Shown: positions 4,251 through 63,851, numbered from the stretch's first letter. The stretch: DNA of 64,000 bases from a virus (IMGVR_UViG_3300046170_000433:11616-75615), one strand, 5' to 3'. The notes: generated by a model not told the origin, from the sequence alone. Made by a program: numbers and translations.

Positions 4251-4277
4251 TGTAACCTAATGAATAGGAGTGTAACA
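4251..4277. promoter_or_regulatory. variant/half copy of the 24-bp palindrome upstream of recombinase 1
   Basis: TGTAACCTA-ATGAA-TAGGAGTGTAACA just before ATG 4280. Confidence 0.45.
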
Positions 4278-4279
4278 AA

Positions 4280-5320
4280 ATGAAAATAACTAAGAGTGAA
4301 AATGGGAACTTCTCAGTAAAGTACAAGGATGCTTCTGGTAACTCTAGGTCAACCAACCTACGCACCAAAGATCGGAAGGAAGCCAGTAGACTAGTAAAAG
4401 ATTTACGCATCGAGGAGCTTGAGCAAGCTGGCAAGCTTGGAGTATTGTCAGCCGAGGTGATTACCAAGATTGCTGGCAGTAAGTCCATGAAGTATTGGGA
4501 TGTTGTCCAGGAATACGAGCAGCACATGAGAATGTCTGCTATCTCCGAGAACTCCATCTATACGATGATGGCTATCTTTGAACACTTCGGTAAGCTGTAC
4601 AAGGTTATAGATAAACCTATGGCATTAATTGAAGATAAGAAGATATATAATTATCTGAACACCGCTGATGACACATCACTAAGTAATCGTGCATTACGGA
4701 AGTCTACACTCAGTCAGTTGTGGAACTTTGCTCAGATAAAGATGTATGTCATGGTAAACCCAATGATGTTTATCAAGATCGATAAGTCTAAGCTCAAGCA
4801 TGAGCAGAAGACTCCGAAGGAAAGAAAGATATTCTACAAGAAGGAAGTGGATAAGATTATCAAGCATGCCCCTTACTTCTTTAGGCAGGCTACAGCGTTA
4901 TCCTATTGGACTGGTCTTAGGCTCGGTGATATCTGTTCTCTCGAGTGGGCAAGCATCAAGGATCGTAATCGTCTAGTCGTATGGACAGAGAAAAGAGATA
5001 AGCTAGTATCAATTGATACCATGGATCCTGCCTTTGGTGGTGGGATTGTAAAAGAAGTACTAGCCGAGATTGATGTAGAGGATAAGGTCTACTGCTTTCC
5101 TTCATGGCACAAGACCATGAGTGACCCCAAGAATAGGTCAAAGGCTAGTGTTTACTTCGGCAGGATCTGCGAACGATTAGAGATTCACGGCAGAAGCTTT
5201 CATTGCCTTCGCCATTCCTGTATCACAAGGTTAAGTAAGATCGGTGTGAGTATTGAAGCTATCGGCAAGGCTGTTGGTCATTCTAATACCAAGACAACCG
5301 AAGGCTATATACACAAGTGA
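4280..5320 (+). CDS. tyrosine recombinase/integrase 1
   Basis: Catalytic motifs TGLRLGD, FHCLRHS, GHS...TEGY; N-terminal arm-binding-like segment (KYKDASGNSRSTNLRTKDRKEA). Confidence 0.92.
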   Translation: MKITKSENGNFSVKYKDASGNSRSTNLRTKDRKEASRLVKDLRIEELEQAGKLGVLSAEVITKIAGSKSMKYWDVVQEYEQHMRMSAISENSIYTMMAIFEHFGKLYKVIDKPMALIEDKKIYNYLNTADDTSLSNRALRKSTLSQLWNFAQIKMYVMVNPMMFIKIDKSKLKHEQKTPKERKIFYKKEVDKIIKHAPYFFRQATALSYWTGLRLGDICSLEWASIKDRNRLVVWTEKRDKLVSIDTMDPAFGGGIVKEVLAEIDVEDKVYCFPSWHKTMSDPKNRSKASVYFGRICERLEIHGRSFHCLRHSCITRLSKIGVSIEAIGKAVGHSNTKTTEGYIHK

Positions 5321-5539
5321 CTACTTGTTAAGTTCGAAGAGGCGTTTGATATCATCGCGCCTATCTTCGACTACCTTCTCAAGGTTATTGATACGCTCGT
5401 GATTCCTAGCTTGGTTAATCTCCAGTCTAGCATTCCTTGCCTTAATTAAATCAATCTCCTCTTTCATTCTCTTTAGAAAGAAACCTAGCACTGATAGTGC
5501 AGCACCAACTCCTATGAGAATATAGTAGTCCATGCTCAC
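5321..5539 (-). CDS. small membrane-anchored coiled-coil protein
   Basis: N-terminal hydrophobic helix YYILIGVGAALSVLGFFL followed by a coiled coil. Confidence 0.65.
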   Translation of the reverse strand: MSMDYYILIGVGAALSVLGFFLKRMKEEIDLIKARNARLEINQARNHERINNLEKVVEDRRDDIKRLFELNK

Positions 5540-5787
5540 TTCATTGACTTCTTACCACGACACTTCCACTTCTTGCGGGAAAGAGCATTGGCACATGGTG
5601 GGTTCTTACACTTCTTTATACCAGCAGAACGTGCGCAATAGGCATCGCCCTTCTTTGTCCCAGGACGTATTCGGTCACCCCCACCCTTAGCTTTACCCTT
5701 CTGCCCGAAAGAACGGCACTTGCCTTTTACTCTCTTAGCAAAGCGCTTACCCTTGGTGGGTTTACATGCTTTCTTCTTAGCAGGCAT
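5536..5787 (-). CDS. small Lys/Cys-rich basic protein
   Basis: Motifs RSFGQKG, AYCARSAGIK and SRKKWKC; coupled to neighbours. Confidence 0.75.
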   Translation of the reverse strand: MPAKKKACKPTKGKRFAKRVKGKCRSFGQKGKAKGGGDRIRPGTKKGDAYCARSAGIKKCKNPPCANALSRKKWKCRGKKSMK

Positions 5788-5909
5788 TAATACTTCTTCC
5801 TGCCCATAGGCTTCTTGCCCACAGGTTTCTTGGCTTTAGCTTTATATGCTTTAGCAGCTGCTTTGCCTTTTTTAGTGTATGGGAATTTTTTTCCATTAAT
5901 GTTTGGCAT
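5787..5909 (-). CDS. 40-aa basic peptide MPNINGKKFPYTKKGKAAAKAYKAKAKKPVGKKPMGRKKY (not in ORF track)
   Basis: Manual translation; TAATG overlap with the 5787 start. Confidence 0.7.
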   Translation of the reverse strand: MPNINGKKFPYTKKGKAAAKAYKAKAKKPVGKKPMGRKKY

Positions 5910-5910
5910 T

Positions 5911-6144
5911 TTATTTATCTCCTTTTTTGGTTTTCTTTTTTTTCCACGAAATTCTTGCCGGCCCCTTCTTCTTCTTCATACTGGAATTACATTGAGCCTT
6001 CGTAGGTCTACATGCTGGGTAAGGTCTTTTGCTCTTACCCTTCTTGGCTGACTTCCTACCACAAGGCTTGCCTGTACGGCAGTCGATCCAGCCCTTCCCC
6101 CCATTACGGGAGAACCATTTCTTTAGACCCTCCTTAGCCATCAC
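5911..6144 (-). CDS. small basic protein (GLKKWF...GWIDCRTGKPCGR...YPACRP)
   Basis: ORF track; Lys/Cys-rich; coupled to neighbours. Confidence 0.75.
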   Translation of the reverse strand: MMAKEGLKKWFSRNGGKGWIDCRTGKPCGRKSAKKGKSKRPYPACRPTKAQCNSSMKKKKGPARISWKKKKTKKGDK

Positions 6145-6293
6145 TTCTTCTTAGACTTGTTCCCCCAATTCTTAGCTCCAACCTTCCGGCATTTAACTAA
6201 TGCACCAGAGGCATAAGCACTAGGCCATTTGGTGTAACGTCTCTTAACCTTGTGATAACAAGCGTCCTTCTTAGACTTCTTCTTCTTCGCCAT
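6141..6293 (-). CDS. 50-aa basic peptide MAKKKKSKKDACYHKVKRRYTKWPSAYASGALVKCRKVGAKNWGNKSKKK (not in ORF track)
   Basis: Manual translation; GAGG upstream; WPSAYASG motif recalled from marine phage proteins. Confidence 0.75.
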   Translation of the reverse strand: MAKKKKSKKDACYHKVKRRYTKWPSAYASGALVKCRKVGAKNWGNKSKKK

Positions 6294-6516
6294 CCTCTTC
6301 TAATATCTCCGATCCTAAGTCCATTACCATTGGAGTTCCCAAGAACTGCATGGATGTGAACAAGCATCCAACCATTGTTTCTCTTGTTAAATCAAATTCG
6401 CTGGAGAATCTTTCAATGAGATTCTCTAGTTCGAAAGTGAAAGCATCGACCTGCTCGTGATACTCCATTACTTTCTTTTCGGCTGAATCCTGCGGTTCTT
6501 TTTCTTGGTCAGACAT
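6271..6516 (-). CDS. small acidic protein
   Basis: 81-aa Asp/Glu-rich ORF. Confidence 0.6.
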   Translation of the reverse strand: MSDQEKEPQDSAEKKVMEYHEQVDAFTFELENLIERFSSEFDLTRETMVGCLFTSMQFLGTPMVMDLGSEILEEDGEEEEV

Positions 6517-6704
6517 TTTATGTTACTTCGTTTGTTATTACGTGGGTTGCCATCTTTATGATGAGCTTCCTTCCCCTTACCACACTTGGCTATGCGCCTA
6601 GCTTTATTCCTGCCTGCCCTTCTCTTCTTCTGTTCAGGTGTACCATGATAATCATACTCAGAGCCTTTAGCTCCTTTCTTATAAACTCTAGGCTTTCTTG
6701 CCAC
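6468..6704 (-). CDS. small basic HNH-type protein
   Basis: HHKDGNPRNN...N...NR HNH signature. Confidence 0.7.
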   Translation of the reverse strand: MARKPRVYKKGAKGSEYDYHGTPEQKKRRAGRNKARRIAKCGKGKEAHHKDGNPRNNKRSNIKCLTKKKNRRIQPKRK

Positions 6705-6883
6705 GTCTCTTGAGGTGTGGGTTCAGTTTCTTCTTAGTTCGATCTGCCTTCTTGTGACAGCAACATTTCTTTTGTTTTCTTCCCTTCATCTTTTCTTTTT
6801 GATTGGTTTCTTGAGGGTACATAAGGATTTTTTCTTATCTGAAGCTTGCTCTTGTTCCTTGGTTATTGAGTATTTCATATATA

Positions 6884-6907
6884 TGTATTCTAGATTACTA
6901 GGTTACA
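6884..6907. promoter_or_regulatory. 24-bp palindrome upstream of the basic-peptide cluster
   Basis: TGTATTCTA-GATTAC-TAGGTTACA; minus-strand ATG at 6878. Confidence 0.65.
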
Positions 6908-7323
6908 GCTTACAAATTAAATCCCATCCGTATCTATACTTCTCCCACATTCCCTCACTCTCAGGGTTGGGATATAGCTTGATGGTCATTCTATTCCCAA
7001 TATCTTTCTTTGGTATAATGTACCAAATTCTATCTCCACCCCTTACTATTACTGCAGCTAAGTAGTCGTATACATTTTTCCCATACCTCTTCTTTGCATT
7101 ACTCTTACAGCCCATTGAAGTATTAATATTATATCCGCACTTTCCAGTTAGTACGGGTACAAGTACCTTTTATCTGAATCTTTGATAATCCACCTTTGCC
7201 ATCCACTACTGCATCATACTGAGAATAGTCTCCCACGGGCATAGATACGTCTAGTCCTCTTTCTAGAGCCTCACATACAAACATCTGCTCGTATAGTGTT
7301 CCGGCTCTTTTGTTCAGACTCAT
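6903..7323 (-). CDS. PD-(D/E)XK endonuclease, split by a frameshift near 7140
   Basis: GTLYE...PVGDYSQYDAVVD...IQIKG continues in another frame as GKCGYNINTSMG...YDYLAAV...WYIIP. Confidence 0.7.
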
Positions 7324-10300
7324 AGAACTAGTCTTCTAAGCTCCTCTGAGTATTGAGACGTATTCTTTCTCGGCTTAGTGGGCGATCCGCCTATCCCTCT
7401 CAGATAGAAGTCATGGTTCTGCATGGACATAAGAAGTTTTTGCCTCCTAGAGTCACTAAGGACGCTAAGGATTGCCTGCATATCAGGATCTGACAGAGCG
7501 TACCTTGTGACGCCTTGCCTTATGTGTTTCCTCTTAAATTTCTCAATGACATCCTTCCTTGGGTCTTCCGCTTGTGACAAGGATAAGGCGGTCCTGTATG
7601 CTTCCTTGAATGCCTCTTTATCATTTGCGTATGCTGCCCTCTCCATCTTCTTCAATGCATTACCCATGGCGGTAGCAGTATAAGTCATGAAGCCACCTTT
7701 GCGCATCTCCATACCCATGACCTTGGAGTAAACTCGAAGTGAGTTTCTCATGCCAGTTATATCAGTTATTTGTCTCTCTGTTGCAAGCAGTCCCGTTGGG
7801 TCTATATCCTCGATGTCTGTTAGATGTGTAGCCATCTGCATATTCTGGACTACAGAGTTTAATCCCATGGAATACATAAGTGGTCGGACAACATTGCTAT
7901 AATCAGGCATTAACTTCTCTGTGTTAAATTCCCCTTCCGTTAAGTCTGTAAAGAAGCCACTAGTCTTTACTGCATTGAAGTAATTATTAACAGCGTTGTA
8001 GCTGTTCATCAGACTAGATATGGCTAGCACTCTACGTGTTGGGTCGAACTGCCCTGCCCTCGAGGTCGGGTCTAACTGACCTATGATGAGTGGTGAGGCA
8101 AATTCTTGTACGATACCTAACACATTGTTAGCACGTGCTGCTCTTTCAAAGACTGCGATACCATCAAACCTCGGGTCAGTTGCTGCAAGAGGAAGGCCGA
8201 TGATAGGAAGAGCTGCTGTTGCTGGTAGCTTGCGTAAAGAACTAGGTTTACCAAGGACTTCCTCGTCCCACCAGTCTGTGAACATCGTAAATGCAATACC
8301 AGCAGGTACGAGCCAAGCTGTAGACATGAGCATATACCTAATACTCTCTCTAATAGCTAGCTGACCATCTTTGTTCTTCATCTGCTCAAGACCTTTACCT
8401 GCTGATGATACAGACCATCCAACAAGTGGAGACAAGAACTGACCAGTGCCACTTTGTGTCCAAGAACCCTTACCGGCCATGGTATCATAGGTTACTTCTG
8501 ACATAGCTATGTTGTAGGATGCCAAGACAGCATCCCTAGTAAGCACTTTAGTCTCTGGGTCAACCTTCAGTCTTCTTCTGTAGTCCTGGGCGAGCTGAGT
8601 GAAAGACATACCCTCAGATACTAGTCTCTGGTTGAGGGATTCAACCATATCTACACTTCCAAATATCCAGCGGTCTAGTTTACTATCTTCGTAACCCAAA
8701 TCACTAGGTTTCACCTCAAATGTGTTGTTGTCCAGTGAGACTCCCTTGGCATCCAGTGCTTTTGCTGTCTGAATAACGAATTTCTCAATGGTATTAGCCA
8801 TCCCAAGTGCTATAGACTTGTTGGTAGCTTGTGCAAGGTATGTAAATGGAGCTGTAAGAGGTGTGAGTAATGATCCTGGGATGTAATTACCACTTGTCTT
8901 TGCTCTTTGACCTGCTCCAATCATAGAAAGTGAGTTTACTGCATTCCGTAAGTTACGTAGACCCTTCTGCATACCTCTGAGGCTACCTTCCTTACCTATT
9001 TCAGTCATGTTCTCACTAAATGACATCATTCCAGCTTCTCTACTGAATACATCTCTCAATTCAGATGCATACTTATCTGCACGAAGCATTTCTATGCCAA
9101 AACTCTCAAGAAAAGACCCTGCAACCTCTCGTGCAAGGTTGGCATATGTTTTACCGACTTGCCTAAAGGCAGTTGGGTTAAGACCAAGCCTTTTTACGAT
9201 ATCAGGAATAGACATTGTGGCTGTCCATGCCCCCTTCATCGTGTTTACCATCCCAAATGCTAATGTGCGCAAGACCTCAAGCCCCAAACTTATGTCTTGG
9301 TTGTTTGAGCTTCTCGAAGTGAAGGCCGCATTGATTGCAGCAAAAGCCTTTTGTGCCTCAACGAAAGTACGAGCCTCTTTGTCGAGCTGATCAAATGAAA
9401 CCCTCTTACCCTTGTTTGCCATGTGGGATTCCATCTTCTTCTTGAATGAACTCCACCAGATTCTATTGGTCTTACTTGGGACTGAACCCGACTTTATTGT
9501 ATAACCCAACTCATCAGCTAGGTTCTTATATGTTGTGTATGAAGGCTGATATTGGTCACGTATTGCACTGTAATTCTCAGTAAGCTTCTCACCTTTCCTT
9601 CCAAATTTAGCGGTCATGAGAATCTTAGACAAGTGTTGTCCAGATGATGTCTCATCATACATCTCGTATTCAAAGAACTCTCCAGGGAGAATGTTATAGA
9701 GACTACGAGCATGAATGGATGAATGTAGTTTTGTACCAGACATCATCGTACTTAAGGATTGCTCGGTGTCTCCGACTGCCTTGGCATCTTCTGTTGCTTC
9801 GGCATGTGCCTTGATTAATGCGTTTGCTCTATGTCTGAATTGACCCAAGAGGTTCGACAAAGTGGTGTCATCTGAATCGGGCAACAATTTCTTTAAATCA
9901 AGTATAGCATTGGCTACCTTGATGCCTGCATTTTCACCCTCTGCATTTCTCCATGCTCTTTCTAACTCCTCGGGCAAGAGTACTCTTACATTATTACCCT
10001 CATCGGTCTGAGAGGTGAGAGTTAATGGAGTTGCATGGGCAGACTTGCCCACAAATATTGGCTTAAAGAACAGATTGGCTATCTTGCCATCAACGAGCTT
10101 ACCCAAGGATTGTACGAAGCTTTCCTCTGCATCCACCTGTTGCACTTCAGCTTCTTTCATTCCGCCAAGTAGCTTCTGAAAAAACTTAGGTTGATAATCC
10201 TCGGACTCATCATAATCGAACTCTGGATCAAGAAGACTAACAACCTCTGCAATCTTAGTCATGTTGAGTTTTCGGGGTGTAGTGTAAACACCTTGATCCA

Positions 10301-13300
10301 CAAACCTTCTGTAGAGCTTGTCCATTCTACCAGTGGCTATGGACTCCCTCTCTACATCTTCATCATATACAGAGATGTCATACTTTCTGTAGAGCCTTTG
10401 GAAGTTCTCATTCTGAATACTCCATTGCTTGAGGTATGCTCTGAGTGCCTTCTTTCCTTCTTCGGTGTAGTTTCGATCAGGATCCTCTGCCTTGAGGTCT
10501 GCCCAAACCTTATTTATAGCTAGCTCCTCTTGACCTTGTAGGTCGGGTCGCTCATTGAACCAATCGAAAAGCTTTGATCCGAAGTTCCTCATGAAGAGAT
10601 TCACATTCTCCCCATTGTCCTTTGCCATCTCTGCATGCAGTCTGACGATAGCGCCGGATACTCTCTTACCTTGACCAAATATTCTACCAGCCTCAGCTTG
10701 GTAGTCTCTAGTATACTCATTGAGTAGTGTTGCAACAGCCTTACCTGCTGGGCCCAGTCTCGACATCCGCTCTTGGAGAGAAGATGCTGCAGCATGAAGG
10801 AATCCAACATTCGACACAGAGTATTGTATGCCAAAGTTAGGCTTACGCATTTCTCTTGCTAGTTGCTTAAAGTATCTATCCTCGGGTGTACCCTCATACT
10901 GCTCCTTGTACTCAGGTGTATCCATGATCTTAAATAGATTGGATGCTTCTGCTGCCATTCTCTTGGCTTCATCAGAGCTTTCACCCTTTCCTAGGGCATA
11001 TGTAAAGTTGTCATCCATGAGCTTGCCATCGGTGAGTCTAAGTGTGGCAAACTTAGCTCCTTCAAATAACTCTACAGGACCAGTAGTCTCAAAGTACTCG
11101 TCAAGGTCGGCAATTCTGTCGTTGTATGCCTCGAGGAACTTCTTGGCTATACTCTCCTCTTCCTTGGCTTTATCCATATCCTTGGAAAGTTCAGCAATCT
11201 CCTCATGAAGCTTACGAACATTCTTGAGAATGGACATCATGGATTTGTCCTTAACATCAGGAGTTGGCTTACCCTCGGAGGCTTGCTTAATAAGATTAAC
11301 TGCCTCTTGTACGGAGTGACCAGCTATCCTTCCTGGGGCGAGTCTCATGCGAGTAGTGAATGCACTACGAGGTACATCATTCTTTTGATCCTTGCCTAGC
11401 ATGAGTGCGACTGCAACTTGAACAGCCTGATCAAGCTCGGGGTCGGATATACCGACATCCTCTGCCTTGATATCCATCAAGTCGAATATCTCCTTGGCTG
11501 TCTTCTGTTCTATAAAATCCTTGGGGTCTTGTGCCTCAGCCAAACGATCCATAAGGTCGTACAGCTTCTTCTCATCTATCTCTAATTCCCTTAGCTTACT
11601 GAAAGATGTAGGTGATAATCCTGTGGCTGCTTCAAATGCATTCACTAAGGAGTACTCCCCTGTTGTCTCAGACTTATTATATAGTGTGCTTTTTAGATAC
11701 CTACCAAAGAGTGCTTGGGTCTTACCAGCATCGAACATGCTCTTGGGCTTAGTAAGAGCTTCCATGCGGTTCTGCTTCTCTATGACCTTGTAGCCGATAC
11801 TCTCCTTGGATGTTTTGGCTTCTCGGAATAAGTTACTGACATTCTCTCTAGCTCCTGCGAGTATTTTCATTAAGTTCCTTCCACCCGTGTCCTTGTTGGC
11901 TCGGGTTTCTAGGTCGTTAATGTCTCTTACTGAGTCTATGTCTATGTTGGGGTTGGTTGCCTCAGCGAACTGGGTGGATGCCTCCTCGGCTAGTAGCTTG
12001 GTCTTTTTGCCAATCACCTTGGCAATCACATCAGGAGTGGTTGAGCCATCAATGGTCATGAACTCCTTGAGTCTCTCAGGCTCTATATTCGCATCACCAA
12101 GATCAGCCAGTACAGCCTTTTGAATCTTACTGAAGTCTTTCAAAGAAGCAGTATGCGCGCGTAACGTGCCACGTGCTACACTCTGTTCAATGGTGTCAGC
12201 AGACTCCATTTGTAACCCATTATCCTGGGTTACAATACTATTATTAGCAGTCTCTATCCCTACCCTAAAGTGTACCTCGCCATCAAACTCATCATCTAGC
12301 TCGAGGTTTTCTTCCTTTACTCTCAATTCTATGATGTTTTCACCGTAACCCTCTGCCTGTCCATCCATGCTCGAGGAAACGAATATCTCATCAGTATTCT
12401 CTTTGGTTACAAAACCATCTTCGGCAACCTTCTCAGGATCTGCATCAGTTCTATGGTAAACGGTAATTGTACCATCTGCATTCTTGGGTATCGGGTTGCC
12501 CTTGCGGTCAGTAAAGCTTGAGTCTCCAGCAATCTCATCGTTGGACTCGAAAGCTCCTCTCATTAAATCTACATCATTGGCTGCAAGCTTGTCAGATGTA
12601 CGCAATAGCGTACGGTAGCGCTTACGAATCTCATCTGATGCAGTCCTCTGAGGAGTAAAGTCAGTATCAAATATCTTACTAGCCAAGTCTAACACCCAAT
12701 CAATTACTCTCTCGAACCTAGACTTAAACTTCCTTGCAAGCTTGGGAGGTAGTGGGCGATTAAGGAACTTCCTAAACTTAGGATTGGTAGCAAAGTTTGC
12801 CCAGAACTCATGCATGTTCATCAAGCCATGGTAATGCACTCCATCGGTCTGAGTCCTAAGCCAATCCATAAGCTCCTTAGTCTCATCATAGAACTGGATG
12901 GCTTGCTTCATTGATAAAACCTTCGATGCACCTCGAGGCATCTTGCCCTTACGCTTGGCTTGTATGCTTGCCTCTACTGCTGTAGCAAAAACCCTGTGGG
13001 CAACCTCCTCAAGGAATGCAACTCTTACTGCATCTTCTGCATTAAGGTCGGTATCACTAACCTTAAAGAATGGCCCCATAACAATAGTATCACCACGGAT
13101 ATAGGCTCTTGTAAGCTTACCATTACTACCATCATTCTGTATACCATCCTTGAAGTTGTCCCATGATCTAAACTGAACCTTTAAGTTCTTAACAAAAGGA
13201 TGTGCAAGTAAAGTCTGTGCCATATCAAGGAGTGACCCACTTAAGGCATCTGAGCCATCAAGTCTTAAAAGCTCCTTGTTCAATAAGGCAGTAAGTCGCA

Positions 13301-17883: not shown

Positions 17884-17907
17884 TGTAACCTAGATAAATA
17901 GGTTGTA
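17884..17907. promoter_or_regulatory. 24-bp palindrome upstream of the giant protein gene
   Basis: TGTAACCTA-GATAAA-TAGGTTGTA; ATG at 17875. Confidence 0.75.
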
Positions 17908-25464: not shown

Positions 25465-25532
25465 AAGTGATCAGATAATTCGGTCTGATTGTTATTGATT
25501 GTAGAGTTGTTTTTTTCCTGTATGCTCATTTT

Positions 25533-28500: not shown

Positions 28501-28815
28501 ATACCCTGCTAGAGTTCCTGGTCTATTTTGGTGAGTAAATACTCCTGATGCACTTAGAAGAAGTCCTGAGCCTGCACTTATGCCTAGATTGGCAGGGCTA
28601 ATAATTCCATCAGATGTGATATTAAGCTCATCAATGTTGAGTCCAAGAATCTGATTAATCTTATTTCCTAGGTTCGTGAAGTTCTCATCTAGGGATTCGT
28701 GGGATAGCGGCGCAGTCTCCATACTGCGAAGCTTCATGACGTCTATGTCTCCAGAGCTAACGGAAAATGGGGGAGAATAGACAGGCGATCCAAAAGTTAA
28801 CGGATTAATGCTCAT
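25533..28815 (-). CDS. tail fibre / receptor-binding protein; frameshift near 26250
   Basis: N-terminal LRSMETAPLSHESLDENFTNL anchor, two VGIGTTNP repeats, GNDGSGSGLDADKLDG motif; continues into ORF 25533-26255. Confidence 0.85.
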
Positions 28816-28838
28816 GTTATCAAGATAATTAGGTTACA
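28815..28838. promoter_or_regulatory. 24-bp palindrome overlapping the fibre start codon
   Basis: TGTTATCAA-GATAAT-TAGGTTACA. Confidence 0.7.
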
Positions 28839-34135: not shown

Positions 34136-34159
34136 TGTAACCTATTTATATATGTAACG
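34136..34159. promoter_or_regulatory. 24-bp palindrome upstream of the fibre cluster
   Basis: TGTAACCTA-TTTATA-TATGTAACG; ATG at 34126. Confidence 0.65.
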
Positions 34160-43892: not shown

Positions 43893-43916
43893 TGTAACTT
43901 AGTTAATTTGGTTACA
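43893..43916. promoter_or_regulatory. 24-bp palindrome upstream of the capsid gene
   Basis: TGTAACTTA-GTTAAT-TTGGTTACA; ATG at 43885. Confidence 0.75.
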
Positions 43917-44025
43917 AACAGAATAGCGTCTTACATATCAAAATTCTATAAACGCTGATTTTACCCCTAATTTAATGGGGGTGTATCTAGAATAGCTTTC
44001 TTAATTGAAAGCCAAAAGATGCATT

Positions 44026-45336: not shown

Positions 45337-47635
45337 TTATTGTGGTATCGGCTGTCCTTGCGGTGGAGGCGCACCTGCTGCTTGTGCAGCTTGCCCTGGG
45401 GGTAATGCTTGTTGTGGTGCTTCTCCTCCCCCAGGTAGTTGTGGTTGCCCACCTTGTTGACCACCTTGCATTTGTTGCATGATCATTTGGAGCATCTGTT
45501 CAAACTGTGGAATCTTCTCCTTCAATCCAGCAATGAACTGCTCGTCTTCCATAGATAAGTCTTCAGCCTCATCTTGTTCGTCCATCTGCAAATTAAGATC
45601 ATAACCTGCTCCTGACATACGGAAGATTTCGTTAAGTATACCAAATATCCTTTCCTTCCCTAAAGCTTGGGCTATTTCTTTCATGCCCAATACTTGTGAA
45701 AAGAGTTGTGTTAAGGTTTGCGCCGCCTGTGTGTCCCTTGACCTTTCTGATCCATCTCTTCCCGAGAATAAGTACTCGTGGATTAAGTTCCTTGGGCTTC
45801 CAATAATATTCCTACCCTTTGGATTCTCATCCTGATCACCAGTGTCTTCTATCTCTAGTCCAGCATCGGTAATTGTTTTAAGGGAGAACCTTTGTTTCAC
45901 AGGGACATTAAATTCTGTAGTGCTACAGCATACGAGATGCTCGTAGATCATCTTCTTGGCTGCAGCGCGCATCTCATCGATACCTTCTGAGATAAAAGCA
46001 TAAATTGTATTAGTCGTGTTAGCTATCTCACTAACCTCGGTTGCAGATATTTCTCTTTGTGCAGCTTGCCCTAACTCTTGTGGAGAAAGTATCATTAACT
46101 TCTCAACTAAGTTAAGTAATTGGAATAAGGAATTAAGTGACATACTAATGCCCTGAGCTAATTCCCTAGATACATCTACTACATTGATTATGTTTTTTGT
46201 ATCAATTCCTAAGTCTGCAGCTTTAGCTCCTGAGTAGAACATAGCTTTTGGTTTCTGATAGAAATTATCTTCTGCCAAGGATGCCTGTAAGTATTCCTTC
46301 ACATCTTCATCTAATGCATCCTGATCAATTGTCAGAATCTTAAACATAGATATTTTCATGTGATGAAGCATCGCATAAACGATGTTATTCATTTGATCCT
46401 GATAAGGCATTAAGTCATGAGCGAACGAGCAGTTAGCCATACGATCATCATTCTGATTTATACCACCATATATGGCAGGTATGGAAGGCATCCACTCGCC
46501 ATAGATAATTGTCTCATCAGATGCCACAACTAGTTTTAACCAGCAATCAAAAGGGTAATCCCCTAGCCCTTCGGCTTTAGGATTCAACTTCATGTAGATG
46601 GTAGATACGAACATTGCTTTGTCCTCATCCTCACCTGCATAGATTCCCTTGTTAGAAGTTCTGTCGTTGCCGAACGGAAACCAATCAGTCTTCTTAGGAA
46701 ATGCTAATACCGATCCATCAAAATAGTAATCGAAGAAGTCTTTGTATGCATTAACCAAACCATGTAATGAATTGGTGTACTCAACTTCTCCAAGATTCCA
46801 ATACCCAGGATTCTCACGTACATCTGAATATCGGACAATATCCCAATACCCTAACCAATTCGGCCCGAGATTTGTATTCACTGCAGCTAACGGAGCAGAG
46901 TTGTCCCAGAATGTTCTAGTGGGATGTGGACTAATAAAATGTATACCTTCTTTCTCCACAAATGACTCCATGCCGTCAGGGGATTCCCTCCAGTGGACTT
47001 CTCTAGTCCATGGCTCAGATGGGAACATGAGAGAGTATCCATACATAAACATATGCCGGATAGACTGCTCAAACTGATGTCTGTATCCGAACTGCTCAGC
47101 CATCATTTCAACACGTTGTGACAATACTTCTGCCCTAATCTTAGAAGGAATGTCAGTACCTCTTGCCTCATACTTAAAGTATGGAAAGAGATTAGAAAAC
47201 CTAGAGGTCTGTGCCGCAACTCTTCGAGTTACATAAGAACGTATTAAAGATACTGAAACCTCATACAAACGCATAAGGTTAATATCTTTGATATCACCCT
47301 CATCATCATACTCTACGAACTTATCTTTCAGCTCAGGATCTATACCCTCTAGCTTTTGCTCACATTGTTGGATATTGATTTTTCCTTGAGCATATTGAAG
47401 CAAGGGAATCGTAAACTTATTTATTGGTAGGCTGTCCCAAGCCAAGTCCACCGAGAGATACAAGGAGTGATTCTTGCATGAGTGATATATTCCCCTCGTG
47501 GACTCGACTTCGGACTAAATCTGTTAAGCGTTCCTTAATCTTCCAATTCTTGGAATCGCTTTTCTTACAACAAAATACTTCTCTAAGTCTCGCTTGGGTC
47601 GTTCCCGTCTTCTCTAGTATGTCTGGATGAACCAT
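45337..47635 (-). CDS. probable portal protein; frameshift near 47490
   Basis: ~765 aa downstream of terminase; DLMPYQDQMN and ISATEV motifs; Gln/Pro-rich tail. Confidence 0.75.
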
Positions 47636-48026
47636 AAAAATCGAATAAGTTAGGGACGGAATCTGTTACGAAGTCTCCCATATATGTCTGTTCTAAGACG
47701 GTTAATAAAAGTGCGCAGGGTCCTGATATGCTTCCACGGAGATAACATGCCTTGAAGGCAGACATAGTAGTGTTTAATAAGGCAACTAACTCTTTCTCTG
47801 ACATTCTTAGATAGCCCAATAATCTTTGTACTCGATTCCTGTCCCATATGTCGTTAACTCCGACGTGCCTGTAGTGATTTGTTATTAGAAGGGAAGCTGG
47901 AGAATAATCATTCTTCCTCAGCTTCTTCCTCTTCGTACTCCTCATCTTCGTCTCCATCTTCATCTTCCTCATAATCCTCGTCCTCTTCGAAGTCACCTGC
48001 CTCTTCCTCGACATTAACATCATCAT
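47583..48026 (-). CDS. hypothetical protein, possible HTH (start uncertain)
   Basis: RVQRLLGYLRMSEKELVALLN...ISGPCALLL resembles an XRE-like helix pattern. Confidence 0.5.
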   Translation of the reverse strand: MMMLMSRKRQVTSKRTRIMRKMKMETKMRSTKRKKLRKNDYSPASLLITNHYRHVGVNDIWDRNRVQRLLGYLRMSEKELVALLNTTMSAFKACYLRGSISGPCALLLTVLEQTYMGDFVTDSVPNLFDFYGSSRHTREDGNDPSET

Positions 48027-48185: not shown

Positions 48186-48209
48186 TGTAACCCAAAAGAT
48201 TAGGTTACT
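48186..48209. promoter_or_regulatory. 24-bp palindrome upstream of the pre-portal genes
   Basis: TGTAACCCA-AAAGAT-TAGGTTACT; ATG at 48177. Confidence 0.72.
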
Positions 48210-51003: not shown

Positions 51004-51027
51004 TGTAAACATAAATATTAGGTAACA
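51004..51027. promoter_or_regulatory. 24-bp palindrome immediately before the integrase 2 ATG
   Basis: TGTAAACAT-AAATAT-TAGGTAACA then ATG at 51028. Confidence 0.6.
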
Positions 51028-52200: not shown

Positions 52201-52674
52201 TCAGCGACCTGCCCACTTCAGATCAAGGTGATTGACACCTCCTATCGGGTTGGGTTTCAATGGTGGTGGTGGCGGAGGGGGCTTAACCCAATCCTGCACT
52301 TTCTCATCCCAATTCAGTCCGTGGAACTCTTTGAGGTGAACATATGCTCGTTCTCTTTTGTGGGCATTCCATGCAACTGAATCTACCCGCATTTGATTAT
52401 ACTTGTCATTACCTGTAAGGAGCAACTGATCAATACTAGATTCGTGACTGAGTAGCCAATGAGTCATGAACAGTACGCTTGTGACTGCCAGAACTGCTAG
52501 TAAGGTTGCTAGCCATGCCAAAACCTGAATTGTCTTGGTCATGCGAATTACTTTCTCCGTTAGATCGTGAATATCTGATATTTTTTGTCCATCTATTGAA
52601 ACGCCAGTAATGGTCTGCTCGAACTCAACTTCTTGATTTTCTTTCGCAAACTCGATGATCAAGTTTTTACTCAT
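52201..52674 (-). CDS. single-TM membrane protein with poly-Pro tail (possible lysogeny/exclusion gene)
   Basis: TAATG coupling at 52674; IQVLAWLATLLAVLAVTSVLFM; PPPPPPP. Confidence 0.6.
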   Translation of the reverse strand: MSKNLIIEFAKENQEVEFEQTITGVSIDGQKISDIHDLTEKVIRMTKTIQVLAWLATLLAVLAVTSVLFMTHWLLSHESSIDQLLLTGNDKYNQMRVDSVAWNAHKRERAYVHLKEFHGLNWDEKVQDWVKPPPPPPPLKPNPIGGVNHLDLKWAGR

Positions 52675-52898
52675 TATAATTTTTCGCCTTTCTTGAAGTC
52701 TAGTGAAAAGCGTTGTACGGCAATCCACTTGGGGGTTTTAATTTCTTTTTCTTTTAACATCTCTAATGCTGATTCTATCGCATTCTGAGCAAAGTTATTA
52801 ACTGGAATACCTCCGAGCTTTTCACACATAGATAGAATTTCATCGTATGTTTCAGGCTTCACTCTAATGCCTATTGATTTTTCTGTGGTTTTATTCAT
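52674..52898 (-). CDS. ribbon-helix-helix-like regulator (repressor position)
   Basis: KSIGIRVKPETYDEI..MCEKLG..VNNFAQNAI; divergent from the early operon. Confidence 0.6.
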   Translation of the reverse strand: MNKTTEKSIGIRVKPETYDEILSMCEKLGGIPVNNFAQNAIESALEMLKEKEIKTPKWIAVQRFSLDFKKGEKL

Positions 52899-52936
52899 CG
52901 GTATTCCTCGATTTGGGCAAGCTGTGCATTTAACAT

Positions 52937-53056
52937 TTTCCTACAAAAACATAAAAAAATTATCAAGGTCAATACTTTATTTCACTTTTTTTCACTTGTT
53001 TTAGTGGTTTGCTAAATTATTTTGCATTTTGCTAATTTTTTTCTTTTTTTAGGAAA
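52937..53056. promoter_or_regulatory. divergent promoter/operator region with ~35-bp imperfect inverted repeat
   Basis: TTTCCTACAAAAACATAAAAAAATTATCAAGGTCAA versus TTGCATTTTGCTAATTTTTTTCTTTTTTTAGGAAA. Confidence 0.55.
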
Positions 53057-53080
53057 CGATATCCGCTAAAGATGTAAACC

Positions 53081-53766: not shown

Positions 53767-54839
53767 AAAGAGACGAGCGAGCATGGAACGGCGTTACCAA
53801 AATGTCTGGTAGCTCCGTTTATGAAAATATGCTCTGCCTTGCGAGATTCAAGGCATCCCAGAAGTTTAAGGATTACGACACTTCCGATGCTTCCGCAGGA
53901 ACTCAACTTCATTCCTACATGGAAGACGGAGTGCCTCTTGATGAAATCATTGATAACAACGAGCGTTTCATCATACAGGAATGCCGTAGAATGGAAGACA
54001 TTGTAACCAAGAAATTTGGGTTAAAGGGTAGTGTTAGTCGCGAGCCTAGGTTGTGGCTCAAGGACGAAAAGGATGAGTTGGGCATCCTCTCTGGTCAGAT
54101 CGATAGGCTCGAGATTGACGGAGAGGATGCCTCCATTCTTGACTACAAAATGCTGTATGGCAATTACGAGGAGGCTCATCGGAATAAACAGCTTCAAGTG
54201 TATGCCATGCTCGTATTTGAGAATTATCCCGAAGTTCAACAGATTCAGCTAGCGTTGCTACAACCTGCCCTTGGTAAATGCACCACAGGTATAATGCATC
54301 GTGACTTAGGAATAATCCTCAAGGGATTGATAAGGGAGTTATCTATTAAAGTAGAAGACGAAGAAGCAGAGGAAACTGCCGGCCCTAAACAATGTAAATA
54401 CTGCAAAGCGTTGGCTCACTGTCCAACAGCTTTCGAATACTTAAAAAATGAAACTAAAGAGATTGATATGGATAATATTTCAAATGACGAATTGGCTGAA
54501 AAGATGGGGCTTGTTGGCCTTATCGAACGTTTCGGCAAAAGTGTTAAATCTGCTACTAAGAGCCGTCTTGAAGCTGGGGTTGATGTTCCTGGATATAAGC
54601 TTAGGAACACTGGATCAACTACTTCCTTTGATGCTGCAGGTGCGGCAGAAATTCTATTTGGCTCGAATTTGCCTGTTAAGGAATTTCTACAAGCAGTCAA
54701 AATTAGCGAACCCGACTTGGTTACCATCTGGGCGGAATTTACGAAACAGGGAAAGGCTCAAGCTCGCAAAGACCTACGTCAGCGCCTTGAGCAGGTAATG
54801 TTTCAGAAAGCAAAAGCTAAGTCAGTAACAGCAGAATGA
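53757..54839 (+). CDS. PD-(D/E)XK Cas4-like exonuclease
   Basis: GTQLH, GQIDRL, ILDYK, QLQVYA, CKYCKA...CP. Confidence 0.85.
   Translation: MAVKRDERAWNGVTKMSGSSVYENMLCLARFKASQKFKDYDTSDASAGTQLHSYMEDGVPLDEIIDNNERFIIQECRRMEDIVTKKFGLKGSVSREPRLWLKDEKDELGILSGQIDRLEIDGEDASILDYKMLYGNYEEAHRNKQLQVYAMLVFENYPEVQQIQLALLQPALGKCTTGIMHRDLGIILKGLIRELSIKVEDEEAEETAGPKQCKYCKALAHCPTAFEYLKNETKEIDMDNISNDELAEKMGLVGLIERFGKSVKSATKSRLEAGVDVPGYKLRNTGSTTSFDAAGAAEILFGSNLPVKEFLQAVKISEPDLVTIWAEFTKQGKAQARKDLRQRLEQVMFQKAKAKSVTAE
54002..54025. promoter_or_regulatory. intragenic 24-bp palindrome
   Basis: TGTAACCAA-GAAATT-TGGGTTAAA. Confidence 0.55.
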
Positions 54840-58354: not shown

Positions 58355-58833
58355 TTGGGCTTACCGGCCCGAAGGGTATGGGGAAGACTACTTTTGCTAA
58401 TCGCATAGGTGGGGAAATTTTGAGTTTATCAACGCCGATCAAGCAGATGCTTGAACTTATAGTTCCGAAGATTTACATCTACGAGGAAAAGGAGAAGCAG
58501 ATACCAGGATTCCCTGAAGGAATAACTGCGAGAGTTCTCATGCAACGACTAGGTACGGAATTTGGGCGAGCATGTTACCCAGATATTTGGGTTAATCACA
58601 CAAAGATAGAAGCTAATAGAAGGATAAAAGCTTTTGAGGCTGTGGGGATAGAAAGCGCACGAGTAATCGTTGATGACATTCGATTCAGGAATGAAGCAGA
58701 TATGATTCATGAGCTTGGTGGAGAAGTATGGAAATTAAAACGAGAAGGATATTTACCGAAGGAAGATAGTCATTCATCTGAGGATGGCTTACCTGAAGAA
58801 CATATAGATAAGGAGATTATTATAGATGAGTAA
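58294..58833 (+). CDS. deoxynucleoside monophosphate kinase
   Basis: IGLTGPKGMGKTT, MQRLGTEFGR, DDIRFRNEA, HSSE. Confidence 0.88.
   Translation: MQTFTLSKDINSTEFTFPRLIGLTGPKGMGKTTFANRIGGEILSLSTPIKQMLELIVPKIYIYEEKEKQIPGFPEGITARVLMQRLGTEFGRACYPDIWVNHTKIEANRRIKAFEAVGIESARVIVDDIRFRNEADMIHELGGEVWKLKREGYLPKEDSHSSEDGLPEEHIDKEIIIDE
58573..58596. promoter_or_regulatory. intragenic 24-bp palindrome
   Basis: TGTTACCCA-GATATT-TGGGTTAAT; overlaps the conserved PDIWV codons. Confidence 0.45.
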
Positions 58834-59474: not shown

Positions 59475-59802
59475 AGAGAAAGGAAATAATATGAGCATGA
59501 GAAAGGTTTACCAACAAATTATTTCAGCAAATATGCTATCCGTTACAGTTGAGCATAATGGCTGTCACGGAGGAGATGCAGGACATGGAGGGTATGTTAA
59601 AGTAACACTTAAAGATGATGGGTGTACTGCCCTGGAGGTAGATGGTAAAGAATCTGATGGGGTAGAAATTATGCTTAGGGGAAGTACCGAAAGGGATACA
59701 TTCATCCAAGCACTTATTGTAATACTCAGAGAGTTGCATGGCCCTATTTTTGATTTAAACGGCCCGATACCATACTTTGATGACCCTGATTCTACGGTGT
59801 GA
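59446..59802 (+). CDS. hypothetical phage protein
   Basis: GGDAGHGG motif; GVEI.LRG..E..TF. Confidence 0.65.
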   Translation: MVLSQGRIIEEKGNNMSMRKVYQQIISANMLSVTVEHNGCHGGDAGHGGYVKVTLKDDGCTALEVDGKESDGVEIMLRGSTERDTFIQALIVILRELHGPIFDLNGPIPYFDDPDSTV

Positions 59803-60305
59803 CTGGTCAGATCAAAATTGATCTAAACCAAGCTGAATGCGAAATAGTTCGCTTCATAGCTGAGGGGCGAAGATCGGAAAATCGTAAGTATGGGGTTAAA
59901 GACTTACTAGTTGCAAAGGAAGACCCTTTGCAAAGGGACATAGAAGGGTGTGGAGCAGAGTATGCATTTGCTAAGGTATACAATCTATACCCTCCGACTG
60001 ATCTTCGCCCCAGGGCAGGTTCGCCGGACTTTATAGTTAAGGGCAGAACGATTGATATCAAGCAATCTGACTACGATAATGCTCGGCTAATTGTGCCTCC
60101 TTACAAGATGGATGATGCAAAAGTTTGCGACTCCTATGTGTTGGTCACTGGTAAATTACCCAATTATATACTAAGGGGATTTGCGAAAAAGCACCAAATT
60201 TGTAACCAAAAAAACTTGATAACACTTAGGTCTTTGGTTTATGCTTTGAGTATCAAAGAGTTAAACCCAATGCCTAATTATGAACGTAGCAGCATATGCA
60301 GTTGA
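59799..60305 (+). CDS. hypothetical protein with PD-(D/E)XK-like motif
   Basis: GAEYAF...PDF...IDIK. Confidence 0.6.
   Translation: MTGQIKIDLNQAECEIVRFIAEGRRSENRKYGVKDLLVAKEDPLQRDIEGCGAEYAFAKVYNLYPPTDLRPRAGSPDFIVKGRTIDIKQSDYDNARLIVPPYKMDDAKVCDSYVLVTGKLPNYILRGFAKKHQICNQKNLITLRSLVYALSIKELNPMPNYERSSICS
60201..60224. promoter_or_regulatory. intragenic 24-bp palindrome
   Basis: TGTAACCAA-AAAAAC-TTGATAACA; right arm is the same variant as at 28815. Confidence 0.55.
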
Positions 60306-61649: not shown

Positions 61650-63688
61650 GCGAAAGCTTCTTCCTCTTCGTAAGCAAATATAGGCTGTTGCTCATTCTCG
61701 AATAGGTCAGAAGTCTTAAAGCCAGTAGAATTATCCTCAATCGCTTCCTGTATATCTACAGCATCCCCTGCCCCGACCATCTCATCTAAAACATCTGCCG
61801 ATTCAACCGTAGGGGCTTTTTTTACACTTGTGCGATTACCCTGATTTGCGCCAATGCTTTCTGCAACTTGACTTCTATCTGCATCACTAGTCTCCAGAGT
61901 ATCTGCATTCGCATTAGCCCTTGCACCAGTGGATTTGAGATTCAAATCAGACATCCTTTGAGCTAATGCACCCTCGCCATATTGATCAGCAAAATCATTT
62001 CTGTCACCTAGATCAGATAAATCATATTCAGTACCATCCTCAGTTGTTGTAGTTTCTCCCCCACCAGATCCTGTACCTTGGTTCTGCACACCATTTCCTA
62101 AACCTCTTTTGTTCCCTACAATAGGTACATTCTTACGAGCTTTCTTTTTCTTCTTTTTCTTCTTTCCACCTCCGCCACCACCTCCGGCACCAATAGTAAT
62201 ATCTGCACCGAAAACATCTCTTGCTACAGAGAGAGGCATACTTAATGCATTACCCAAAACAGAAAGTGGTGCGCCAACAAGACCTTTCAAGCCTTGTCCA
62301 GCCATACCCAAGTTTCCGTATGCAAGACCTTGCCCCATAAGTGCAACAGAATCTGGCACACCCATAACTGTACCCAAAAGCGAATTTCTGTCACTAGAAC
62401 CAAAAAGATAATCACCCGATCCATCAATCACATTACCCATGTTCAGGATGCCTCTTCCAAGAAAATTATCACCAACAGCCTGACCCACACTTGCCAATCC
62501 TCCACCAACTGTATCAGTTACAAAGTTTAAGGGCTTAAGAAGCATTCCACCAAAATCACGGATTCCATCAGTAAAGGAATCTACCTTATCGTAGAATGTC
62601 GGAGTGCCTGCATAACGAACACCATTAACCATCTGATTAGGCTCACCATATTCATTGAAACCATATCTATCTCCTGCAATTCGTGAACGTGCTGTAGCTC
62701 GTGCAGCCGCACCAGATGAGATGCTCATCGGATCATTAAGCGCCTGTCCTATGTTTTGTGTCTGCCGAGGAAATACATAACCACCATTGGTAGCAGGATC
62801 CGAAACATAGCCCTTCTTTGCACCAATATTATTGATGCCACTAGCAATCAAACTACCTATAAATGGCGTATTGCCCTCAGGACCAGCAACCATTGTTCCC
62901 TGGGGGATATACATATTCGACATAGGATCAACATACTTCTGTCCCTCAATCGTATTATAAGAATATGCACCCAATGGTATTTGGCTTTCCGCGTATGCAT
63001 CCTGGGCTTCATTCGAATATACACCACTTGCTACATCAGGACTTGTGAAATCAAAATAATCTAATCCAGCATCTGCAGCAGAAGCTAACTGACTAGCAGT
63101 ATTTGTTATCTGACTCCTCTCCCAGTTACTCAAATTAGGGTCATTTGCTACCTCACCTAAAGCTGCAATAGCCTCATTCGAGTCAAAATTTACAGAACCA
63201 TCGTCATTATAAGTCAATAAACCATAATCTTCTAAGATATTCTGCTCTGTCTGGTTAATACTGGTTATATCCTCAAGAATCCCTGCCTCTTCTAAAGTTA
63301 AATTCTCATTCTCGAAGAAATTCGTGTTCGTTAGGGTGTCTGTACCTGTATCAAAGTTGTTTGTGAACCAGGATGGGTCATAATCACCACCCGTGTTCAT
63401 GACTCCATTCATCCAATCAAAAGAATCGGTAGTTGTGCCAAACAAATCATTCTGCACCTCCGGCAAAAGGATGTAATTGTCAGCAGGAAGATTGTAATCA
63501 GCAAACCTATCGACGCTGTTTACTGCATAACCACCTAAGTCAAATGAGCTAATCGGATCATATCCACCTCCACCACCACCAAAAGTATTACCTGCCCAAG
63601 TGTTAGCGAAGGTATCTTGAGGAGTATAGGCAGTAACCCCATCATAATAACTTGCACCACCCGAATGATTTCCTCCTAAGCCAAACAT
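61646..63688 (-). CDS. 680-aa low-complexity protein (acidic, Gly-rich, poly-Gly/poly-Lys)
   Basis: Long ORF; GGGGGGGKKKKKKKARK; start abuts the palindrome. Confidence 0.75.
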   Translation of the reverse strand: MFGLGGNHSGGASYYDGVTAYTPQDTFANTWAGNTFGGGGGGYDPISSFDLGGYAVNSVDRFADYNLPADNYILLPEVQNDLFGTTTDSFDWMNGVMNTGGDYDPSWFTNNFDTGTDTLTNTNFFENENLTLEEAGILEDITSINQTEQNILEDYGLLTYNDDGSVNFDSNEAIAALGEVANDPNLSNWERSQITNTASQLASAADAGLDYFDFTSPDVASGVYSNEAQDAYAESQIPLGAYSYNTIEGQKYVDPMSNMYIPQGTMVAGPEGNTPFIGSLIASGINNIGAKKGYVSDPATNGGYVFPRQTQNIGQALNDPMSISSGAAARATARSRIAGDRYGFNEYGEPNQMVNGVRYAGTPTFYDKVDSFTDGIRDFGGMLLKPLNFVTDTVGGGLASVGQAVGDNFLGRGILNMGNVIDGSGDYLFGSSDRNSLLGTVMGVPDSVALMGQGLAYGNLGMAGQGLKGLVGAPLSVLGNALSMPLSVARDVFGADITIGAGGGGGGGKKKKKKKKARKNVPIVGNKRGLGNGVQNQGTGSGGGETTTTEDGTEYDLSDLGDRNDFADQYGEGALAQRMSDLNLKSTGARANANADTLETSDADRSQVAESIGANQGNRTSVKKAPTVESADVLDEMVGAGDAVDIQEAIEDNSTGFKTSDLFENEQQPIFAYEEEEAFA

Positions 63689-63689
63689 A

Positions 63690-63713
63690 TGTTACCTATA
63701 TTACTTGGTTTCA
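63690..63713. promoter_or_regulatory. 24-bp palindrome
   Basis: TGTTACCTA-TATTAC-TTGGTTTCA; ATG at 63688. Confidence 0.65.
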
Positions 63714-63825
63714 TCTCATTGGTCAAATCCTGAACGCTACCAATTGATTCCCAGTTTAGGAAAGTTCAGAAACGGTGCATATATATATACAGCTGCCGGA
63801 TCCTGATTCCCCCCAGGCACCCCCT

Positions 63826-63851
63826 TGTAACCTAATGTGTATTAGGTAACA
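63826..63851. promoter_or_regulatory. palindrome variant with 8-bp spacer
   Basis: TGTAACCTA-ATGTGTAT-TAGGTAACA. Confidence 0.6.

Follow-up and report, generated by a model that had tools for sequence, protein, structure and literature searches.

What is the role of a long, symmetric sequence element that recurs many times along a phage genome, mostly directly against the start codons of genes? This question is raised by the viral DNA stretch IMGVR_UViG_3300046170_000433:11616-75615, a window of 64,000 nt that comprises bases 11616-75615 of a single virus record of 75,615 bp. An earlier reading of the window, made from the sequence alone (the sequence-only reading), had noticed at least 13 copies of a 24-bp dyad, TGTWACCYA-N6-TRGGTWACA, with two 9-bp arms around a 6-bp spacer (9+6+9). 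When matches with up to three mismatches were counted, all 13 copies were recovered at their claimed positions, with 0-3 mismatches, compared to 0.31 ± 0.53 matches expected from dinucleotide shuffles, which never gave more than two. The whole 75.6-kb genome contains 20 copies, seven of them in the 11.6 kb that precede the window, together with one variant with an 8-bp spacer (9+8+9; about 21 dyads in all) and one half site. The variant, which has two perfect arms, and the half site upstream of the gene of a tyrosine recombinase (recombinase 1), which has one, had been noticed as well, and both were borne out. A position-weight scan of the whole genome split the sites cleanly from all other sequences, with scores of 15-32 for the 20 sites and at most 10.3 elsewhere. 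A possibly garbled copy, proposed to lie near position 25465, was rejected, as it is missing from the list of sites scoring at least 8.

The position of the dyads is tightly connected with start codons. At 14 of the 20 sites the ATG of an open reading frame (ORF) of at least 60 aa is located at a gap of -1 to +9 nt, compared to 8.8% of random 24-mers (binomial P = 4e-11). One more site has its ATG at +20, past an inserted Shine-Dalgarno sequence, AAAGGAAAGG, and another one (6884) precedes a basic peptide of 30 aa. Overall, 16 of the 20 sites are intergenic or start-associated, and four are intragenic. The distance between the dyad and the upstream stop codon is far more variable (about -22 to +109 nt), and in the long intergenic spaces at 43893, 51004, and 63690 the dyad is still placed against the ATG. 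The nine copies claimed to be start-associated in the window (6884, 12211, 17884, 28815, 34136, 43893, 48186, 51004, and 63690) were all confirmed. The intragenic copies proposed for the exonuclease gene, the deoxynucleoside monophosphate (dNMP) kinase gene, and the 59799 ORF were also found, and the copy at 8690, inside a giant gene, is a fourth one. The claim that the associated ATGs are devoid of Shine-Dalgarno sequences held for the ORFs that were scanned, as 0 of the 8 scanned ORFs of start-associated window copies contained such a motif; it has to be read with the caveats that the ATGs at 6884 and 12211 fell outside the scan, that the former opens an ORF of just 30 aa, and that the latter is an internal, in-frame ATG. 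Shine-Dalgarno sequences of the AAGGA/GGAGG type are present at the left-operon genes that have no dyad, whereas most of the dyad-bearing genes lack them. The presence of a dyad together with a missing Shine-Dalgarno sequence suggests that these genes could be leaderless or short-leader expression units.

The gene-oriented consensus of the sites was TGTAACCyA-aaTAAc-TAGgTWACAa, with an AT-only spacer core, in which T16 is invariant. The spacer varies from site to site in most cases; AATAAC recurs, in direct orientation, in three left-arm sites. There is no consistent orientation of the sites, and the intragenic copies occur in either orientation as judged by the score of the position weight matrix (PWM). 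Two classes of sites could be distinguished by the quality of their arms. In the seven left-arm sites the arm distal to the ATG is near-perfect (8-9/9) and the proximal arm is weaker (7/9), while six of the nine start-associated sites of the window combine a perfect proximal arm with a weaker distal one. The features of the window are collected in Table 1.

Table 1. Dyads and associated features of the window, in window coordinates.
Feature	Position	Strand	Context
Half site	4251..4274	+	Distal arm TGTAACCTA perfect; AGGAG Shine-Dalgarno in place of proximal arm; full dyad in clade B
Recombinase 1	4280..5320	+	Lambda-Int-like; R, HxxR, H, Y present; putative candidate binder
Dyad	6884..6907	-	5 nt before ATG (6878) of 30-aa basic peptide, first gene of basic-peptide cluster
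Dyad	8690..8713	.	Within 2779-aa ORF; no adjoining start codon
Dyad, sole perfect copy	12211..12234	-	Within giant ORF; 1 nt on, in-frame ATG leaving 1629 codons
Dyad	17884..17907	-	8 nt before ATG of 665-aa virion protein gene; GATAAT hexamer 3 nt upstream of dyad
Dyad	28815..28838	-	Final A doubles as first base of the ATG of 863-aa tail-fibre gene
Terminator-like hairpin	28862-28846		Just upstream of fibre-gene dyad
Dyad	34136..34159	-	9 nt before ATG of 81-aa gene; kept at clade B orthologue; one RNA contig reads through
Dyad	43893..43916	-	7 nt before ATG of 627-aa capsid-like gene
-10-like hexamer TATTCT	43920..43925	-	3 nt upstream of capsid-gene dyad
HTH-like protein gene	47583..48026	-	C-terminal ~90 aa resemble Xre/Cro type; in dyad-preceded unit; candidate binder
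Dyad	48186..48209	-	Abuts TerL stop; 8 nt before ATG of 89-aa very acidic protein; HTH-like gene next; kept in both clades
Dyad	51004..51027	+	Abuts ATG of integrase 2; GATTCT hexamer 5 nt upstream of dyad (GATAAT in G004)
Dyad	54002..54025	.	Within PD-(D/E)XK exonuclease gene; antisense ATG abuts, ORF just 28 aa
Dyad	58573..58596	.	Within dNMP kinase gene; G001 keeps arms, spacer changed
Dyad	60201..60224	.	Within ORF 59799-60305; kept in G001, G002, G003
Dyad	63690..63713	-	1 nt before ATG of 680-aa gene; same layout in G001
9+8+9 variant	63826..63851	.	Two perfect arms; non-coding terminal region; kept in G002

Both the motif and its positions are conserved in related phages. Five relatives found through their TerL proteins carry the motif, and the reversed-pattern control gave 0 matches. 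Relatives of the 627-aa protein, whose label "capsid-like" is that of the sequence-only reading and which gave no match in the family search, were detected on 48 IMG/VR loci with 56-98% identity, and most of them have a dyad upstream of the gene. In the distant clade B, which consists of three complete genomes of ~80 kb, one with terminal repeats, the capsid-like protein is 56-61% identical and the dyad has the form TGTWACACK-N6-MGTGTWACA. It is present in 8-11 copies per genome at up to three mismatches (control, 0), mostly against ATGs. Hence, between clades A and B the outer TGTWAC was kept, and the inner three bases were changed from CCY to CAC on both arms and genome-wide. Dyads were kept across the clades at the orthologous starts of the capsid-like gene, the small gene after TerL, the 81-aa gene, recombinase 1, and the basic-peptide cluster, and the proteins encoded behind these shared dyads are just 30-60% identical.

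The comparison of 42 distinct sites from six records was used to distinguish between a DNA site and an RNA structure. The two arms could pair at 257 of 378 positions, compared with 264 ± 4.7 when arms were shuffled between sites. Positions 4 and 21 are A-A or T-T in 23 of the 42 sites, departures from the consensus in one arm are without compensation in the other, and no T-tract follows the dyads. The lack of covariation between the arms argues that the dyad is a DNA-level site for a protein. An RNA hairpin or cruciform, which could have served as a terminator, a processing site, or a translational operator, was ruled out on the same grounds.

The five genomes of candidate-host Opitutales (1.8-2.5 Mb) contained 3-6 matches to the motif each, compared with 6-21 matches to the reversed control, so that the motif is not enriched in them and a host regulator with this box was rejected for these five genomes. 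Together with the lineage-specific half-site, this makes a phage-encoded binder the simplest explanation of the sequence data.

The arrangement of putative promoters around the dyads varies between genes. At the capsid-like gene, 29 distinct relatives share a TAnTnT hexamer located at -9 to -4 from the dyad. Three runs of two studies gave RNA contigs with ends there at 43912, 43913, and 43907, which correspond to dyad positions 4-5 and 10; one capsid-gene contig has a fold-back joint at 43913, and two runs were without cover further upstream. Assembled contigs do not define RNA ends, and their uncovered parts are uninformative; these ends are a weak hint that the capsid-like transcript starts ~7 nt past the hexamer, with the dyad spanning about -3 to +21. 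The integrase 2 gene has the same layout, with the hexamer upstream of the dyad. At the fibre gene (TTGGCC-17-TATCTT, kept in G001) and the 680-aa gene (TTGACC-17-TAATAT, with TTGCAG-17-TAATAT in G001) the -10-like hexamer falls within the dyad spacer, at dyad positions 12-17 and 11-16, respectively, and the ATG is at dyad position 24-26 (from position 24 in the fibre gene). The dyad centre is consequently at about -11 at the latter two genes and at about +9 at the capsid-like gene. In clade B, TTGACA-like hexamers are often present 3-6 nt upstream of the dyad; the one at recombinase 1 contains the helicase stop codon, and is not independent evidence. The variable position of the dyad relative to the promoter argues against a position-dependent activator, which would not tolerate such shifts, and in favor of a repressor, because a protein bound at either place could hinder RNA polymerase. 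This shift is the main ground for preferring repression.

These data are consistent with the dyads being operators of a phage-encoded regulator, probably a repressive one, located at the core promoters of leaderless or short-leader genes, and we give this explanation a probability of about 0.5. We infer that one sequence-specific protein encoded by the phage would bind the dyads, probably as a dimer or a dimer of dimers, and that each start-associated dyad would overlap the core promoter or transcription start of its gene. The mRNAs of these genes would be leaderless or short-leadered, without a Shine-Dalgarno sequence. The bound protein would block host RNA polymerase at ~16 gene starts, and the four intragenic copies may serve as roadblocks, so that a single factor would silence or time most of the genome. 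The two classes of sites, distal-strong in the left arm and proximal-strong in the structural and right-end regions, would differ in occupancy, and hence in timing. That one phage factor controls many units had been suggested by the sequence-only reading, and it is the natural reading of a DNA-level, lineage-specific, and start-anchored motif. Other parts of that suggestion did not stand. The network is not mainly a late one, as seven strong copies are in the left-arm operon of small non-structural genes, and a position-dependent activator is disfavored by the shift of the dyad centre described above.

Several observations weigh against the operator explanation. The gap to the ATG is -1 to +3 in 28 of 48 oriented sites, a tightness that a simple operator does not need and that would fit better with a promoter or translation role. 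In the two relatives G317 and G318, whose capsid-like protein is 76-80% identical, the PWM scan found 5 and 11 sites, respectively, mostly of the form nnnnATCTA-N6-TAGGTTACA, which has one full arm and the inner CTA of the other. Such one-armed sites are not well explained by a symmetric dimer; all candidate binder genes are still present in both genomes, and a de novo search found no other dyad family there. Sigma-70-like promoter matches are overall no more frequent than in shuffles, so that only individual sites are informative, and several left-arm sites are without recognisable promoter elements. The transcript evidence consists of assembled contigs, with usable ends at the capsid-gene site only. 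The window also contains a region that resembles a genetic switch of its own. Here, the 74-aa product of 52674-52898 appears to be a ribbon-helix-helix (RHH) protein, with a membrane-protein gene next to it and an HTH_17 gene in divergent orientation, and the AT-rich divergent region 52899-53080 (182 nt) contains TTTCACT and TTTGCTAA repeats and no dyad. The dyads are therefore probably not operators of the local RHH-like and HTH_17 proteins, which probably have operators of their own. Finally, a search of 301 Opitutales genomes with the capsid-like protein found no prophage copy of this putatively temperate phage.

It is unlikely, while still deserving serious consideration, that the dyad is a positive promoter element, at which a phage activator or sigma-like factor fixes leaderless or near-leaderless starts, with the spacer ending in T16 as the -10 element and ACA as the start. 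Such an element would account for the tight gap to the ATG, for the mostly missing Shine-Dalgarno sequences, and for the non-random gene-oriented spacer (aaTAAc, with invariant T16). At the fibre gene a hairpin abuts the dyad, so the promoter must fall within the dyad there, and many sites are without any other conserved promoter element. The capsid-like gene points in the opposite direction, as its RNA contig ends map to dyad position 4-5 with a conserved -10-like hexamer upstream, which means that the dyad there is transcribed and is not itself the promoter, and in clade B the dyad of this gene is 16-19 nt from the ATG. Two-fold symmetry is also unusual for promoters, and copies within genes are present in either orientation. 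No phage RNA polymerase or sigma factor that could read such an element was recognized among the tested proteins by Pfam, PHROGs, and PDB sequence searches, in which the giant protein was without any match, and no called ORF contained a convincing DxDxD metal-binding motif.

Another possibility, which we regard as quite unlikely, is that the dyads are core-type sites bound by recombinase 1, which would either have an architectural or regulatory role or catalyse rare exchange. The core sites of tyrosine recombinases, such as dif, loxP, and the attP core, consist of inverted arms of ~9-13 bp around a central region of 6-8 bp. The 9+6+9 and 9+8+9 dyads have the same geometry, and a lambda-Int-like recombinase is encoded in every genome with the motif. 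Recombinase 1 resembles lambda Int (PDB 1Z1B, E = 7.6e-8) and has 37-74% identity among the dyad-bearing genomes examined, and in both clades a dyad or half dyad lies in front of its gene; the AATAAC spacer common to three left-arm sites in direct orientation would also fit. The likeness to dif and loxP noted in the sequence-only reading is, however, limited to geometry, as the dyads lack shared central regions and recombination products. They occur in twenty copies per genome, their spacers differ at most sites, as had been argued against ordinary recombination, and the compared genomes are collinear and show no inversions or deletions that end at dyads. Some BLAST segments end at dyads, but identity does not break more strongly across dyads than at other gene junctions (P = 0.30 and 0.56), and the dyads were rejected as mosaic or recombination junctions. 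Neither would such sites explain the anchoring to start codons.

A more specific version of the role of recombinase 1 is that it occupies all ~21 dyads, doubling as a genome-wide regulator of leaderless starts, and that its half-site specificity has co-evolved with the network across this family of marine Verrucomicrobia phages. This appears very unlikely. The catalytic residues R, HxxR, H, and Y are intact, so that nothing indicates a conversion into a pure DNA binder, and several other proteins are equally present in every genome. The earlier suggestion of recombinase 1 as the binder has thus gained no specific support.

The motif could also be an element of the mRNA that replaces the Shine-Dalgarno sequence in translation initiation, bound by a protein or paired with an RNA, as proposed for the start-associated sequences of Cluster K phages. 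The position of the dyad is that of a ribosome-binding site, the capsid-gene dyad lies within a transcribed leader, and it is mainly the ATG-proximal arm, TAGGTTACA, that G317 and G318 have retained. We consider this explanation highly doubtful, as conservation extends to both arms of a two-fold symmetric DNA site and shows no compensatory changes, the well-kept arm of the left-arm sites is the ATG-distal one, in the opposite orientation, antisense copies are present within genes, and 16-19 nt separate the clade B capsid-gene dyad from the ATG. Recruitment of a host transcription factor with this box, for example one with few chromosomal sites, is extremely improbable in view of the match numbers below the reversed control in five candidate hosts and of the half-site that differs between phage clades.

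Returning to the regulator proposed to bind the operators, the proteins kept in all dyad-bearing genomes include recombinase 1, the protein encoded at 47583-48026, the TerS-like 222-aa protein, a 131-aa protein, integrase 2, and an HNH endonuclease. The conserved part of the 47583-48026 protein is its C-terminal ~90 aa. Its AlphaFold2 model (predicted local distance difference test score, pLDDT, of 72) has five main helices and a short C-terminal one. Foldseek gave no PDB match below E = 1, and the weak matches were mostly to Xre/Cro/C-protein helix-turn-helix (HTH) folds, while its ESM Atlas neighbours, with a score of 0.93, carry HTH families. The HTH-like product, whose gene lies in a dyad-preceded unit, is a candidate binder, as a lead only. 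The 131-aa protein (50371-50766) had no family match and no Atlas match. The 89-aa protein encoded upstream of the HTH-like ORF (47908-48177) contains 41 D and E residues among its 89, and the region encoding its acidic tail overlaps, in another frame, that encoding the K/R-rich N-terminus of the HTH-like ORF; one of these two stretches may be untranslated.

The dyads can be compared with three classes of dispersed repeats in other phages. The stoperators of Cluster A (L5-like) phages are 13 bp long, asymmetric, and oriented with transcription; the phage repressor uses them to silence the genome, and the same motif also forms the operator of the early lytic promoter beside the repressor gene. 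Like the dyads, they are present in dozens of copies genome-wide, mostly in short intergenic spaces and sometimes in genes, and both are read as sites of one protein that silences transcription throughout the genome of a temperate phage. The element described here is different in being a symmetric 24-bp dyad, without consistent orientation and anchored to starts, in having no copy in the switch-like divergent region, and in that we infer the binding of a repressor from the sequence.

The start-associated sequences (SAS) and extended start-associated sequences (ESAS) of Cluster K phages are repeats located a few nucleotides upstream of starts, mostly ATG, which are absent from the host genome and have no known function (PMC3203893). 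The SAS is a 13-bp asymmetric sequence that contains the Shine-Dalgarno core AGGAG and occurs only in the non-structural genome half, and the ESAS are inverted repeats whose consensus differs by subcluster and whose arms are without hairpin-type covariation (PMC3203893). The dyads resemble them in the location a few nucleotides before the ATG, the lineage-specific half-site, and the absence of covariation between the arms. In contrast to the SAS, the dyad is symmetric, has no AGGAG, replaces the Shine-Dalgarno sequence, and precedes structural, non-structural, and recombinase genes. In Cluster O phages, which are not obviously temperate, a 17-bp dyad, TGTTCGG-N3-CCGAACA, with invariant 7+3+7 arms, is present in more than 30 copies per genome and was predicted to be bound by a dimeric protein, with no known function (PMC4351075). 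About one-third of these copies are within genes, and according to the authors they are not closely linked to translation starts or predicted promoters (PMC4351075). The dyads described here share with them the symmetry, the many copies, and the location of some of them in genes, whereas they are strongly linked to start codons, have promoter-like elements at several sites, and have longer, variable arms.

Dispersed repeats themselves are known; what is new here is that a dyad-symmetric repeat is anchored to starts and stands in for the Shine-Dalgarno sequence, in a marine phage whose host belongs to another phylum. Regulatory repeats of this kind are known chiefly from actinobacteriophages, with no known function for two of the three classes. 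Here the same kind of network is present in an unrelated, uncultured family of marine phages with predicted Opitutales hosts, and its sites are unusually well defined in length, score split, and start anchoring. The natural change of specificity between the clades, on both arms, provides a handle for finding the binder by covariation. The translation signals of this host group are little studied, and the link between the dyad and the Shine-Dalgarno sequence bears on leaderless or short-leader units. Should the repressor model hold, temperate phages would have a second, independent means of silencing an entire genome with one protein.

The assignment of the host follows from integrase 2. In the 5′ part of its ORF, ~50 nt (51075-51124) are identical to the 3′ part of a tRNA-Val gene and represent the attP core. 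A 42-nt stretch of this tRNA-Val sequence was found exactly in 27 contigs, 26 of them from marine Opitutales/Verrucomicrobia and one that is filed as an archaeon but belongs to a related phage, and the RNA-run contigs that overlap it run on into the 5′ half of the tRNA. The tRNA identity and the contig matches suggest that the host is likely a member of the Opitutales (Verrucomicrobia) and that the phage is probably temperate. The 8-kb flanks of the 26 host tRNA-Val loci contained no phage genes. No close cultured relative was found, as megablast gave no matches and the TerL matches by tblastn were below 30% identity. One 13.9-kb contig with a dyad (L047, CALIKS010000040.1), filed under an uncultured-archaeon metagenome-assembled genome, encodes portal, TerL, TerS-like, and integrase 2 proteins that are 55-84% identical to those of the window, and is a phage contig binned with the archaeal sequences.

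The genes found include the left operon of small genes, with those for Pfam GP88, L5 gp82-like, and C5 methylase proteins, as well as a SNF2 helicase and the lambda-Int-like recombinase 1. The GP88 and Phage_L5_gp82 families, which are named after mycobacteriophage proteins, were detected in this marine phage at genome positions 5719-6477 and 9355-9741, to the left of the window (E = 9e-30 and 3e-28). A long minus-strand block encodes the basic peptides, the 2779-aa protein, tail-fibre and virion proteins, the 627-aa capsid-like protein, portal, TerL, and the TerS-like protein. Besides integrase 2, as the second tyrosine recombinase, and the switch-like divergent region, the genome also has a recombination and replication operon with Rad52-like, PD-(D/E)XK nuclease, RusA, DnaB, SSB, and dNMP kinase genes. 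The final ~200 nt of the record (genome 75416-75615, window 63801-64000) recur near its beginning (genome 13-212), which could reflect a terminal repeat or the assembly overlap of a circular or permuted genome; the dyad with the 8-bp spacer falls within this repeat.

At 7320-17875 the window has separate ORFs of 665 and 2779 aa, whereas in G001 a single ORF of 3682 aa, preceded by a dyad, spans both (from 14633 onward); around the internal dyad at 12211 the window and G001 are without homology, and the giant gene looks like a fusion of modules. The cluster of very basic small ORFs at 5321-6878 encodes, among others, an 83-aa product with 31 K and R residues and a 30-aa product with 11. Its 83-aa and 50-aa products have clade B counterparts with 74-81% identity; in that clade the cluster adjoins the HNH gene and is not located between recombinase 1 and the giant gene, so that the module has moved. 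The cluster begins with a dyad in both clades. Lastly, ~40 nt past the capsid-like gene's stop codon there is a GC-rich hairpin (ACGGGAGGC...GCCTCCCGT) at 41963-41932. In two runs the RNA contigs stop near 41981, and one contig spans the hairpin, which is probably a partial terminator.

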